Source: an uncultured Bdellovibrionales bacterium
GTDB lineage: Bacteria > Bdellovibrionota_C > UBA2361 > CAKMMH01
DNA: 64,000 nucleotides
NCBI GenBank assembly: GCA_964534945.1
Contig: CAZHSB010000001.1
Coordinates: 25,527-89,526 of the forward strand
Reading direction: 5' to 3'
The translations under genes and the position numbers were made by a program. The notes beneath the pieces are model-generated. The model was given only the letters and a program-made list of their open reading frames with translations, made no database searches and was not told the DNA's origin. This document shows, piece after piece, positions 25,364 to 58,485 of the stretch. Within the stretch, counting starts at the first letter, position 1, and the number at the start of each line of letters is the position of its first letter.

Positions 25364-26152
25364 TTAATGTGAAAAACTTACAATTCTTATATCAGGCGTA
25401 TAAAGATTAACCTCATCTCCACTTAAAATGGTTTCTAACTCCATCTCAAATTTTTTTGTGCTTTTTGGTTTTAATGCTACATCCTTTATTTCTAAGAATT
25501 CTTCATCATTACTTAACTTTTTGTCCCCTATTTTACTTTTAAACGAAACTGCTAAAGAAATTTCTTTTACAACCTTATCAGATAAGTTTTCGAAATCTCC
25601 ACTTATAACAAAATAATATTGTAAATCCTTTCCTGAAGGAGAGACTATCTTTTTATCAAAATATAAATTGCTCATTTTCAATACTTCCGTTTTAGTACTA
25701 GTTTGAGCTTGTGCATTAGGTTTTGTAAATTTCTTCAATGCCTCCTCTCCCCACAAAAGTTCCAATTGAAAATCAGTAGACTTTTTAAGATCAGTAGAAA
25801 TTAAAAACTTTTTAGGCTCATCTGCATTAATAAATTCACTCTTATCCTTGCCCATTAATTTTGAAAGAATGTATGCATGTTCACTAACTACTTTTGAATT
25901 TATATCAAGTAACCTTAAATTCAACACCACATCTTTCACAGGGGCTTTAACTTCGCTCGTAATTTGACCTAATATATAAATTTTTTCTCCATCATTAATC
26001 TTTTCCAATACTTCCAAAGAAAACATCTCATCATCACTTTTCGGAGAATTAGTTCCTACGGAGACAACCCCTCCTTTCAAAACACAAGATGAAAAAAAAC
26101 ATAAAAAAATACTAAAAAAACATTTGAAAAAAAATTTATTTTTCTTGATCAC
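25364..26152 (-). CDS. Hypothetical lipoprotein
   Basis: Signal peptide with lipobox (FFSSC). No recognisable family. Confidence 0.45.
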   Translation of the reverse strand: MIKKNKFFFKCFFSIFLCFFSSCVLKGGVVSVGTNSPKSDDEMFSLEVLEKINDGEKIYILGQITSEVKAPVKDVVLNLRLLDINSKVVSEHAYILSKLMGKDKSEFINADEPKKFLISTDLKKSTDFQLELLWGEEALKKFTKPNAQAQTSTKTEVLKMSNLYFDKKIVSPSGKDLQYYFVISGDFENLSDKVVKEISLAVSFKSKIGDKKLSNDEEFLEIKDVALKPKSTKKFEMELETILSGDEVNLYTPDIRIVSFSH

Positions 26153-54682: not shown

Positions 54683-56200
54683 TTATTTTTTATTGCTTTT
54701 CTTGCTATTTTTATCTCTTATATTACCTTTTATTTTACTTTTACTACCTATTTGCACTTTTTCTTTTTCCTGCTTAGGTAAAAGCTTATATATCAAATAT
54801 CTTGTATGTTCTCCCCTCTTTAAAAGAATTAAAAATGGCTTATTTAATGATTTTGATTTTATAGCATTTTTAACATCAATTACATTTGTTATTTTTTTAC
54901 CTGCAACTTCTTTTATCAAATCCCCTCTTTGTATTCCAGAATCAAGAAATGCTTCATCATCTTTTATATCCGTGATCAAAACACCTTCAAAATCCTCAAG
55001 CTGTAAAACATCCGCTAATTTTTTATTCATATCTTTTAATAAAAGTCCCATAATATAATCTTCATCTTTTTCTTTCTTTTTCTTTTCATCATCTTTTGCG
55101 TCAAATTTATTTATCGTGGCGTTTAAAGTCAAAAATTTTCCATTTCTTATAAGGCCAATTTTCGCCTTACTACCAAGTGGCATTTCTGAAACTCTTAATG
55201 ATAACTCACTAAAATCTTTTATTTGAAAATCATTAAAGTTTGTTACAACGTCTCCTATCTTTATCCCTATTTTTTCCGCTACGGAATTTTTCAAAACGTC
55301 GGCAACTAATGCCCCACTTATCTTTTCTAAATTTAAAGCCTCTCTTACTTCTTCATCGACTTGTTGAATAATAATTCCTAAAGCACCTCTATCAACTTTT
55401 CCCTGTTCCTTTAATTGATTTATAATTTTTTTAACTTGATTCATCGGTGTTGAAAATCCAATGCCGATATTAAAGCCTGCTCCCCCAAATCTTGATGGGC
55501 TAAATATAGCAGTATTAATTCCTACGACTTGTCCTCTTGTATTAAGAAGCGGCCCACCGCTACTTCCTGGATTTATTGAGGCATCTGTTTGGATATAGTT
55601 TGCAAAAGGAAAAGCTTGATTTCCTTGAACCTGCCTAGACACAGCTGATACGATTCCTGCAGTAACTGTTTGCCCAAGTTGAAATTGATTTCCAATAGCA
55701 ATGACCCATTCGCCAACATGTAACTTATCAGAATCTCCTAAATACAAAAAATTAAAATCATTTCTTGCTTCAATTATCTTTAATAAAGCAATATCTACTT
55801 GTGGATCTTTTCCCAATATTTTTGCACTATATTGTTTCATATCGCCATCGAATCTAACTTTTATATTCTTTGCTGATTCTATGACATGATTATTGGTTAA
55901 GATAAAGCCCTCTTTACTTATAATGAATCCAGATCCAAGAGAAACAATTTTTCCTCCATCAAATTCTTCTTTTCCGTTTTCTTTCTCTTTTTTTACCAAT
56001 TCGCCAGAAATATTAACAACTGCCTTTTCTGCAATTTTCACCAATTTACTAAAATTTTGCCTCTTAAAAACTCTTTTTTGCTTTTGCATTAAAGGTGGTA
56101 TCCCCTCCTTAAACAATCCTTCATCACCATTTCCAGCATAACCACTTGTCTGAAAAACCAAGCTAAAAACTATCAAAATAAAAAAAACACTGTTTTTCAT
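54683..56200 (-). CDS. htrA: Do-family periplasmic serine endoprotease (DegP/HtrA) with two PDZ domains
   Basis: Signal peptide, catalytic GNSGGPLLN motif, and two PDZ-like C-terminal domains. Confidence 0.9.
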   Translation of the reverse strand: MKNSVFFILIVFSLVFQTSGYAGNGDEGLFKEGIPPLMQKQKRVFKRQNFSKLVKIAEKAVVNISGELVKKEKENGKEEFDGGKIVSLGSGFIISKEGFILTNNHVIESAKNIKVRFDGDMKQYSAKILGKDPQVDIALLKIIEARNDFNFLYLGDSDKLHVGEWVIAIGNQFQLGQTVTAGIVSAVSRQVQGNQAFPFANYIQTDASINPGSSGGPLLNTRGQVVGINTAIFSPSRFGGAGFNIGIGFSTPMNQVKKIINQLKEQGKVDRGALGIIIQQVDEEVREALNLEKISGALVADVLKNSVAEKIGIKIGDVVTNFNDFQIKDFSELSLRVSEMPLGSKAKIGLIRNGKFLTLNATINKFDAKDDEKKKKEKDEDYIMGLLLKDMNKKLADVLQLEDFEGVLITDIKDDEAFLDSGIQRGDLIKEVAGKKITNVIDVKNAIKSKSLNKPFLILLKRGEHTRYLIYKLLPKQEKEKVQIGSKSKIKGNIRDKNSKKSNKK

Positions 56201-56406
56201 AATATTCCTTTAAAATTTTTAATTTTTTATAACAATTTCAGATAATAACCTTAAAAAGAGTTACTGTAAATCAGAAAAATACTAAAAAAACTATTGAAAT
56301 TTAGAAGCATTGCCGAAATACTACAAGATAACTAAAAAGTTAAAACTGGAGCAAGTTATCTTGCAAATTTTTTATATCGTTTTTTATAAATTTTAAGGAG
56401 CATCTT

Positions 56407-56799
56407 ATGCTAGAAAAAATTAAATCGTGTTATGAAGGAACTTGTAGATATATTGGAGCTATGCAAATTGCACCAACAAAAAGACAAGCTCAAGTATGCC
56501 TTCTTCTTTTAGGTCTTGTTATTTTAACTGCAGGTTCTGGCCTAGAAGCAATGGCTCAAAATAATTCTGAGATAAATACAGATAGAATCGATAAAGCTGC
56601 AGATAAATTATTAAAAGCCATCCAAGGTCCATTTGGAGCTTTAATAATGATTGTTGCAGGAATATTTGCAATTGTTTGTGCTGCAATGGGAAGTTATAAG
56701 GTAGCATTATCTTTGCTAGTTATTTCTTTAGGCGCATTTATCTTGAGATCAATTATTGCTACATTCTTCAATGTAAACAGTATTGGTGAAGGCTATTAA
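56407..56799 (+). CDS. VirB2/TrbC-family pilin-like protein (orphan)
   Basis: Long N-terminal leader ending AMAQ. The mature region GPFGALIMIVAGIFAIVCAAMGS...LSLLVISLGAFIL parallels the A. tumefaciens VirB2 GPFGQSLAVLGIVAIGISWMFGR...FGASFL two-helix pattern. Confidence 0.5.
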   Translation: MLEKIKSCYEGTCRYIGAMQIAPTKRQAQVCLLLLGLVILTAGSGLEAMAQNNSEINTDRIDKAADKLLKAIQGPFGALIMIVAGIFAIVCAAMGSYKVALSLLVISLGAFILRSIIATFFNVNSIGEGY

Positions 56800-56818
56800 A
56801 GTAAATATTTAAACGAAA

Positions 56819-56856
56819 AAGTCGATCCATAATTTTATGGGTCGACTTTTTTTTGC
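56819..56856 (+). terminator. Rho-independent terminator (11-bp stem AAGTCGATCCA/TGGGTCGACTT, 8-nt loop, T-run)
   Basis: Read directly from the sequence, 20 nt after the pilin-like ORF stop. Confidence 0.7.
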
Positions 56857-56873: not shown

Positions 56874-57701
56874 TTATTTTCCGCCTAATCTTTCCCCAAA
56901 TGAAATTTCCCCTCTTTTATTAAAATCAATTTTATCTTTAAAATTATTATCTAAAACGAGTACAACTGTCGATCCAAGTTTAAAGCTTGCTATCTTTTCA
57001 AAGATATCTATTTTTTCATTTATATTAAATTCTTTTACTTTTCTTTCTTTTAAATTGTTAGTTTCAAAATTTAAAAATTTGTTTGTCATTTTTCCCACAT
57101 TTGTTGCACCTATCATAATTAGTAACAAATTTCCAAATTCTGATTCAATATTAAAAATTAATCTTTCATTTACAGAAAAAAGGTTTTTAACTGACCTTAA
57201 AGACCAATCAGTTACTGGCCAAAGATTTCCAGGTATATAACGAATAGTTTTTAATATTCCACTTAATGGACTATGAACATTATGATAATCTTTTGGTGAA
57301 AGATATAAATTGATAAAAAAACCATCTTGAAACTTTTTAGCTTCTTCTTTAGAACCTAATAATTTATCAAGCTCATATCTTTGTCCTTTTAAAACTTCAA
57401 TTGAAAGATTTTTTACCTCATCAACGTTCCTTAAAAATGCATCAACAGGACTTACAAAATTACTCTCAATTTTTCTTGCCCCTGATTTTAAATCCCTATT
57501 AAAAAATTCTCCTAATGATTCATATTCTTCTAAATTTTTTGAGATTTCCGATACATCGATTTTATAAAAAGAAATAAAGCGTCCTATTACAAACCTTACT
57601 AAATATTTAGGTCGTGTTATATTGGCAATTTTCCCAAATATAAAACTTAAATAATTTTTTGGAAAAATAAAAAATAACAAAAATAAGATTTTATCTCTCA
57701 T
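56874..57701 (-). CDS. psd: Phosphatidylserine decarboxylase proenzyme
   Basis: C-terminal LGST self-cleavage motif and a Psd-like core (FINLYLSPKDYH). Confidence 0.85.
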   Translation of the reverse strand: MRDKILFLLFFIFPKNYLSFIFGKIANITRPKYLVRFVIGRFISFYKIDVSEISKNLEEYESLGEFFNRDLKSGARKIESNFVSPVDAFLRNVDEVKNLSIEVLKGQRYELDKLLGSKEEAKKFQDGFFINLYLSPKDYHNVHSPLSGILKTIRYIPGNLWPVTDWSLRSVKNLFSVNERLIFNIESEFGNLLLIMIGATNVGKMTNKFLNFETNNLKERKVKEFNINEKIDIFEKIASFKLGSTVVLVLDNNFKDKIDFNKRGEISFGERLGGK

Positions 57702-57883: not shown

Positions 57884-57960
<77 letters not shown>

Positions 57961-57972
57961 TTTTCATTTATC

Positions 57973-58485
57973 TTAAAAATCCTCGGCGCTAGAATATTTT
58001 CCCAAATATCTTCCTTTTTCGTCGTATTTTTTATATGAACCATCTGATGATTTTTCTAATTTTCCAACATACTGTCCTCGCTCATCATAATGCTTAATAG
58101 TTCGTCCAGATGAATCTTCTTCATACTTTCCTTTATAATGGCCAGATGAATCAAAAGATTTTGATGTTCCCCCAAATGACTTTTCTAATTTTCCCTCATA
58201 CTTTCCTGAAGAGCCATATTTTTTTACTGTATTGCCAAAATCTTCATATTTTCCTTGATATCTTCCATGATCATCAAAAGATTTTATCGTTTTATCATCT
58301 TGCCTTTTAAATTGACCTTCATATAGTCCAGAAGAATTATAGCCTCTCACTGTATGATTTGAATTATTATCATGATTACTAAATCGATTATCAAAATCAT
58401 TAGGCTCAGCAAATGAAATATTTAAAAATAAAAAAATAATACTCAAAATTAAAGTAATGTTTTTCACAAATAAACCCTTATGCAT
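57973..58485 (-). CDS. Secreted protein composed of about six tandem ~21-aa repeats (G-x-Y-x-G-K-[YL]-E ... K-x-[YF]-D; MORN-like)
   Basis: Signal peptide (ISFA) followed by repeats visible in the translation. Confidence 0.5.
   Translation of the reverse strand: MHKGLFVKNITLILSIIFLFLNISFAEPNDFDNRFSNHDNNSNHTVRGYNSSGLYEGQFKRQDDKTIKSFDDHGRYQGKYEDFGNTVKKYGSSGKYEGKLEKSFGGTSKSFDSSGHYKGKYEEDSSGRTIKHYDERGQYVGKLEKSSDGSYKKYDEKGRYLGKYSSAEDF

Follow-up and report, generated by a model that had tools for sequence, protein, structure and literature searches.

Several groups of type IV secretion systems (T4SSs) form the background to the gene described here. Pilins of the VirB2/TrbC family undergo head-to-tail cyclisation, and systems of the F type operate without VirB11. 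In the Rickettsiales the T4SS genes homologous to vir are split over several loci, and the Anaplasmataceae carry several virB2 paralogues. Chromosomal systems that are not conjugative are also known, among them the DNA secretion system encoded by the gonococcal genetic island (GGI) of Neisseria gonorrhoeae, the ComB system for DNA uptake in Helicobacter, and the bacteria-killing X-T4SS of the Xanthomonadales. The locus to be compared with these lies in a stretch of 64,000 nucleotides (the window) from an uncultured Bdellovibrionales bacterium (assembly GCA_964534945.1, contig CAZHSB010000001.1, forward-strand positions 25,527 to 89,526), where the plus strand carries at 56407-56799 a pre-pilin gene of a VirB2/TrbC-like family. 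We consider it probable that this gene encodes the VirB2-like pilin of a divergent chromosomal T4SS, and that in the clade to which the window belongs it has become detached from the rest of the machine. A preliminary description of the window had called the gene an orphan pilin and had offered two readings, a scattered T4SS or a domesticated pilin-like membrane protein.

The gene has an ATG start and 130 codons plus a stop, and the traits named in the preliminary description, namely a 130-residue product with a long leader ending in AMAQ, a GPFG motif, an MG..K segment and an LGAFIL segment, are all present. The leader occupies residues 1-50 (56407-56556, plus strand), has its hydrophobic core at about residues 30-46 and ends A48-M49-A50 / Q51, the bond at which signal peptidase I presumably cleaves. 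The predicted mature pilin has 80 residues (56557-56796, plus strand) and, according to AlphaFold2 and the conservation of the family, forms a two-helix hairpin. An amphipathic helix at residues 58-73 is followed by the motif G74-P75-F76-G77, a first helix at 75-93, a loop with G95-S-Y97-K98 that lies within M94-G95-S96-Y97-K98, and a second helix at 97-120 that includes L108-G-A-F-I-L-R114. The AlphaFold2 model gave the two hydrophobic helices as 75-93 and 97-120, with pLDDT above 90 over residues 81-110.

Homologues of about 130 amino acids were found 41 times in a protein database clustered at 90%, almost entirely in metagenome-assembled genomes (MAGs) labelled Bdellovibrionota, Bdellovibrionales, 'Deltaproteobacteria' or Dadabacteria. 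None of the 41 had a precomputed Pfam domain, and one had been named 'VirB2 component (pilin)', independently, by the JGI pipeline. A profile search of 1.84 billion representatives returned 673 clusters (50% identity) at E<=1e-3, of which 484 reached E<=1e-10. Because homologues are so widely conserved, the open reading frame (ORF) is a real gene and not a chance ORF. Among 156 family members, G74, G77 and G85 are invariant, and E73, F76, A78-L-I-M81, G95, Y97, G109-x-F-I-L-R-S115 and F120-F121 are nearly so. The loop position 98 is R or K in 147 of the 156, and the predicted cleavage site has A at position -1 in 145 members and one of A, S, V and T at position -3, again in 145. The C-terminal tail is variable among family members. 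Five database members are apparent fusions of Peptidase_M23 with the pilin, and some others in the database contain two pilin domains. Other identities were also considered for the protein. A type IV pilus (T4P) or Flp/Tad pilin was rejected, since there is no class-III leader motif, the leader is a 50-residue Sec-type one with A-x-A, and no Pfam match of that kind was obtained; a phage or holin-like protein was rejected because the context does not support it.

The relationship with VirB2/TrbC was examined by profile comparison. The sole relevant Pfam match was to TrbC/VirB2 (PF04956), with an E-value of 1.1e-4 over model positions 6-87 of 98. TrbC was also matched at E<0.01 by 28 of 146 diverse family members, the best of them at 3.4e-6, and besides TrbC only Peptidase_M23 was matched by more than one member (5 of 146). 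An hhalign comparison of the 156-member family with seven annotated VirB2/TrbC sequences gave a probability of 92.7% (E 4e-7, score 44.5, 76 columns), and in this alignment the A-x-A/Q site, the GxFG motif and the FG-R loop are all in register. The template used is small and all alphaproteobacterial, consisting of six annotated genes from MPF_T conjugative plasmids together with Agrobacterium VirB2 in a sequence 99.2% identical to the annotated protein. As controls, the reversed template scored 13.7, 30 full column shuffles scored at most 20.1, and 30 local shuffles in 8-column blocks, which leave the hydrophobic segments in place, scored 14.4 on average (standard deviation 2.8, maximum 20.9), while the subunit c of E. 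coli ATP synthase scored 12.7. A single F TraA sequence scored 8.9, a weak comparison because VirB2 against TraA itself also scores only 10.1; no match of the pilin to Pfam TraA (PF05513) was found at E<=10. Judged by these comparisons, the family is a divergent subfamily related to VirB2/TrbC that stands outside Pfam-threshold membership.

In related species the pilin family is associated with a T4SS cluster of about 15 genes, three of which encode small lipoproteins (for example L089 1079-15250, L069 138-15759, L004 1-9484, and L009-L088). The cluster starts with a divergent gene for a coupling-protein-like ATPase, followed by genes for a 628-residue protein with N-terminal membrane segments, a 117-residue secreted protein and a 142-residue membrane protein in the TraL/VirB3 position. 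The core then reads TraE, TraK, TraB, TraV, a lipoprotein and TraC, and the cluster ends with a lipoprotein, a small protein, bPH_2, SH3 and an M23 peptidase. On one 449-kb metagenomic contig (L004), genes for a TraK-like protein, TrbI/TraB, TraV, a 224-residue protein and a 925-residue TraC/VirB4 are followed by three small proteins, a bPH_2 membrane protein, SH3 and M23, and then, on the same strand, by a pilin homologue 45% identical to that of the window.

The assignment of these proteins relies on Pfam and NCBIfam models. The VirB4-family ATPase of L004 matched TraC_F_IV (42.1 bits versus 28.1) and P-loop_TraG (34 versus 25.8), and the TraC of L089 matched the TraC-F-type model of NCBIfam at an E-value of 1e-55, with 189 bits against a cut-off of 567. 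Homologues of the outer-membrane core (VirB10, VirB9 and VirB7) and of VirB8 were recognised by TrbI (44.5 bits versus 35), TraV (22.8 versus 21) and TraE (28.2 versus 24.8), and TraK_C was sub-threshold in the cluster (19.6-22.5 versus 28.5 bits). The coupling-protein-like ATPase matched TraG-D_C (29.8 bits versus 22) and SXT_TraD (E 1e-14) and has the Walker A motif GVGKT. No Pfam or NCBIfam match to VirB6, VirB3, VirB5, VirB11 or VirB1 was obtained among the cluster proteins, and no further pilin candidate was recognised in the cluster.

The association between pilin and cluster was counted in both directions. Among TraC loci of related species with at least 5 kb of sequence downstream, 34 of 53 have a same-strand pilin-family gene, and in 28 of 47 loci this gene starts no more than 1.5 kb after the M23 gene. 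Seen from the pilin side, the count covered 28 loci of 6 kb or more from metagenomes, and T4SS core genes adjoin 10 of them. The RFHI01 MAG (D6719) has both arrangements, with a cluster copy (L022 15650-16120) and an orphan copy on another contig (P0027) that is 69% identical. Two or three tandem pilin copies follow the M23 gene at some loci (L009 15859-18483, L010 9867-11249, L013 10078-11149 and L027 15965-16865). In L004 (10675-11550), where the pilin gene adjoins the cluster, and also in an orphan locus (L006 7040-7930; L007 999-1889), a fatty-acid desaturase gene is found no more than a few kb from the pilin gene, and this proximity may be a remnant of an older synteny.

The low-GC clade of the window departs from this arrangement. 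Its TraC loci, which include L058, L066, L069 and L079, lack a pilin gene over about 10 kb, and a divergent pair of htrA and pilin genes recurs instead, with pilin identities to the window of 82% (L171), 67% (L170) and 63% (L002), the neighbour on the opposite side being a different one. In the assembly GCA_050952645.1, that of the nearest named relative, the pilin gene stands beside htrA on contig JBMNLI010000012 (L002), and the TraC cluster is on a separate contig, JBMNLI010000017 (L069). The scattered arrangement is directly demonstrated in this assembly.

For the window itself, the contigs are present in the Logan run SRR8925823, and the same run contains a TraC (P0307) on a 47.6-kb contig with an intact 15-gene cluster (L089), where no pilin gene is found in the 0.6 kb of sequence beyond the M23 gene. 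This TraC is 94% identical to that of the GTDB representative L062. The tetranucleotide correlation between L089 and the window is 0.984, the highest among the loci that measure 5 kb or more, and two 16-kb pieces of the window correlate with one another at 0.992. Moreover, P0307 and the window proteins show the same pattern of data sources (NCBI and Logan). From the shared run, the composition and the data sources, the L089 cluster is likely to belong to the genome of the window. Further T4SS components, for which the preliminary description had suggested a search, are found as a cluster just upstream of family members in 34 of 53 related species, in GCA_050952645.1 and in the run SRR8925823, and its scattered-T4SS reading gains support from the detached pilin gene together with a cluster elsewhere.

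The other reading in that description was that the protein is descended from a T4SS pilin and now acts independently of any machine, as a domesticated or moonlighting protein with a role, for instance, in envelope biology together with the divergent htrA. Speaking for it are the stable pairing of a detached gene with htrA across four lineages (identities of 63-100%) and the frequency of orphan copies, and some genomes hold both cluster and orphan copies, a situation from which new functions usually arise. Since about 60% of the metagenomic loci are without T4SS neighbours, orphan copies could have functions of their own. However, no cluster-adjacent copy is present in L069, over about 10 kb downstream, or in L089, over about 0.6 kb past M23, and because such a copy is lacking in the clade the htrA-linked gene is so far the sole pilin candidate for an intact machine. 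The residues that define the family, G74, G77, G85, G95, Y97, K98 and GAFILR, have also all been kept. Domestication is less parsimonious than a scattered T4SS, and we regard it as unlikely, with a small though real chance of being correct.

A pilin that belongs to a T4SS might serve intercellular DNA transfer, the pilin gene and cluster being a conjugative element such as an integrative and conjugative element (ICE) or the remnant of a plasmid. The core is indeed nearest to the models of F-type conjugation (TraC-F-type at 1e-55, TraE, TraK, TraB and TraV), a TraD/VirD4-like coupling ATPase adjoins the core genes, and the genes that flank the cluster differ between loci. Against this, a scan of the genes of the cluster, not of its flanks, turned up neither a relaxase nor an integrase, and no match to the pilin protein was found in 72,556 plasmids (tblastn, E<=1). 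TraC is 64-77% identical among the best 120 of 299 database matches and occurs in 110 GTDB species (one genome per species), and the 80 loci listed, at 61-74% identity, are all from Bdellovibrionota-type MAGs. Over 40 loci the GC content of the cluster follows that of its flanks across a span of 0.31-0.58 (r = 0.987, with a mean difference of 0.012), as expected of a vertically inherited system, and this suggests long residence in these genomes and not recent transfer. Because a recognisable relaxase is lacking and the pattern is vertical, the evidence leans away from classical conjugation, and we consider a conjugative element improbable.

Several results weigh against a detached T4SS pilin and temper our confidence in it. 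The Pfam score of the protein, 22.8 bits, is below the gathering threshold of 27.9, so that the pilin identity given in the preliminary description holds against the annotated VirB2/TrbC profile (92.7%) and not at the level of Pfam. NCBIfam returned nothing relevant for the pilin, and hhalign against one VirB2 sequence gave a probability of 13.6%. No solved pilin in the PDB was found by the family profile at E<=10, with chance matches at E>1, and fold searches with the pilin returned generic helical hairpins only. In the window, tblastn with the cluster proteins of L004 and L089 found no homologue other than the pilin ORF, in line with the earlier statement that no other T4SS gene is present; this check used the T4SS proteins of the lineage itself and not every T4SS model against every window ORF. 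No T4SS gene lies near about 17 (about 60%) of the 28 pilin loci from metagenomes that span 6 kb or more, and neither in the cluster nor next to it was a homologue of VirB6, VirB11, VirB5 or a relaxase recognised. The likely place of L089 in the genome of the window is supported by the similarities given above and by no assembly record, and the formation of a pilus, the cleavage of the leader and secretion by family members are predictions from sequence. The sub-threshold Pfam match and the fold searches, which cannot separate the pilin from any helical hairpin, would even allow an unrelated two-helix membrane protein whose likeness to VirB2 comes from hydrophobic composition, but this is very improbable, as controls that preserve composition and segments reach 20.9 at most against the real 44.5 and composition cannot explain why the gene adjoins a cluster of the VirB4/VirB10 type in 34 of 53 species.

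The pilin gene stands between htrA and psd with a terminator of its own, as the preliminary description had reported. A Shine-Dalgarno-like AAGGAG (56395-56400, plus strand) was seen on inspection of the sequence 6 nt before the ATG, and is also present in the 82%-identical L171. Directly after the stop codon an intrinsic-terminator-like hairpin at 56815-56852 (plus strand) has a 17-bp stem followed by a T-run; its 5' side is A-rich and it may also serve the convergent psd. Two such terminator-like sites were found, against 0.3 expected. In the 5' leader of the gene, about 40 nt upstream of the start codon, there is a small hairpin (56351-56364, plus strand, GCAAG-TTAT-CTTGC followed by a T-run), which is kept in three relatives (L171, L170 and L002), with two pairs changed on both sides among the four sequences compared. 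This weak evidence suggests a possible regulatory element, perhaps an attenuator, an operator or a stabilising stem.

On the minus strand, the gene for an HtrA-type protease (Trypsin_2 and PDZ; 54683-56200) is divergent from the pilin gene, and psd (PS_Dcarbxylase; 56874-57701) is convergent with it. The intergenic region between htrA and the pilin gene (56201-56406 in the window) measures about 206-225 bp across the four lineages. The family hidden Markov model (HMM) found a single copy of the pilin family in the window. The GC content of the window is about 31%, with 2-kb bins between 0.26 and 0.35 and a value of 0.278 for the bin of the pilin gene. A recent, horizontally acquired island around the pilin gene was rejected, as this bin is within the range of the window and the neighbours are housekeeping genes. 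Nearly all window genes of at least 100 amino acids are on the minus strand, the pilin gene being among the few on the plus strand. Only three of the 32 2-kb bins lack a negative GC skew, and summed along the window the skew declines almost steadily. Because of this skew pattern and the near-uniform coding on the minus strand, the window probably lies within one replichore. A tRNA-Met gene is found at 57884-57960 (plus strand), 1.1 kb downstream of the pilin gene and just past psd, and at 57973-58485 (minus strand) a gene encodes a 170-residue protein that has a signal peptide and contains some seven degenerate repeats of the form S-S-G-x-Y-x-G-K.

In most related species the pilin gene is the last of the cluster, just past the gene for the M23 peptidase, and if the gene in the window encodes the pilin of a divergent T4SS, as we favour, it has moved in the low-GC clade to its stable divergent pairing with htrA, the remaining machine being elsewhere in the genome. 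The following course of events can then be proposed, every step of which is modelled on VirB2/TrbC and F-type systems. The precursor of 130 residues would enter the inner membrane through Sec, where signal peptidase I would remove the 50-residue leader behind A48-M49-A50. The mature hairpin of 80 residues, with its two hydrophobic helices and the basic K98, would then form a pool in the inner membrane, from which the TraC/VirB4 ATPase would extract it and polymerise it on a scaffold of TraE, TraK, TraB and TraV into a pilus or conduit. The local opening in the peptidoglycan would be made by the M23 peptidase together with the SH3 protein, which would stand in for a lytic transglycosylase of the VirB1 type. 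As for the cargo, the coupling-protein-like ATPase would allow either DNA or protein.

Taken further, these observations raise the possibility of an undescribed class of T4SS with an F-type-like core, a VirB2-type pilin and a cell-wall module of M23 and SH3 proteins, lacking a recognisable relaxase, vertically inherited, core to a large clade of uncultured Bdellovibrionota and serving a role other than conjugation. We put this forward tentatively. If such a class exists, its role might be, for example, contact with or attack on other cells, or the uptake or release of DNA, and pilin genes that are detached and duplicated would permit separate regulation or variation of the surface. The literature consulted on T4SSs in the Bdellovibrionota and Oligoflexia does not describe such a system; coverage was incomplete and the result is an absence of evidence only.

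More broadly, conservation of a T4SS extends over uncultured bacteria of the Bdellovibrionota type, in at least 110 species, and their TraC proteins are 61-77% identical. Most of its parts go unnamed because they score below the cut-offs of NCBIfam and some of them below those of Pfam too, and the pilin of the window has no name from its source. The cultured predators of the Bdellovibrionota are usually described as lacking T4SSs, and for this reason a vertically inherited T4SS with a module of cell-wall hydrolases in their uncultured relatives would be a candidate machine for interactions between cells. For annotation, small two-helix 'hypothetical' proteins with the pattern A-x-A/Q ... E-G-x-F-G-A-L-I-M ... 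G-x-Y-R ... G-A-F-I-L-R-S can be taken as candidate T4SS pilins, even where they are solitary. The gene in the window now has a plausible identity, and the larger system behind the pilin deserves follow-up.

Compared with the VirB2 T-pilin of Agrobacterium and with TrbC of RP4, the window protein shares a leader of about 50 residues, a site of the A-x-A/Q type and a mature part of about 75-80 residues, and it also has an I-x-G-x-F-G that opens helix 1 and, past a short loop bearing a basic residue, another hydrophobic helix. It differs from them in motifs that are the family's own, E-G-x-F-G-A-L-I-M, G-x-Y-R/K, G-A-F-I-L-R-S and F-F, and in its partners, which form an F-type-like core and not a VirB or Trb operon. 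Annotated VirB2/TrbC genes adjoin homologues of virB1 or virB3, whereas the gene of the window family does not. The cyclisation known from VirB2/TrbC cannot be assumed for this family because its C-terminal tail is variable.

With the T4SS core of the F plasmid (TraL-E-K-B-V-C), the partner cluster shares the order E-K-B-V-C. Its best model matches are also to the F type (TraC-F-type, PRK13729 TraB, TraE, TraK_C and TraV), and as in F-type systems no VirB11 was recognised in it. In contrast, all the NCBIfam matches are far under the curated cut-offs, and no model for TraW, TraU, TraN, TraF, TraH, TraG, TrbC or a relaxase was among the Pfam and NCBIfam matches of the cluster proteins scanned. 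The cluster also adds bPH_2, SH3, M23 and three small lipoproteins to the F-type set. Its pilin resembles VirB2/TrbC and not TraA, for which there was no Pfam match and a score of 8.9 in the weak hhalign test, and the pilin gene takes the 3' end, or a place outside the cluster, and not the 5' end.

The split T4SS of the Rickettsiales is similar in being chromosomal, vertically conserved and spread over several loci, with pilin genes that are detached and sometimes duplicated. It differs in that the phylum here is Bdellovibrionota-type, the core is F-like and not of the VirB type (P-type), and detachment is known for the pilin gene alone. The comparison with obligate intracellular Alphaproteobacteria that was drawn in the preliminary description accordingly holds only as an analogy, the organism being a Bdellovibrionota-type MAG and not an alphaproteobacterium. 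Compared with the GGI, ComB and X-T4SS systems, the likeness is in the T4SS core, and no effectors, immunity proteins or genes for DNA processing were identified in the partner cluster. These systems nevertheless share with it a peptidoglycan hydrolase in the cluster, and they are precedents for a T4SS that is fixed in the chromosome and does something beyond the transfer of plasmids.

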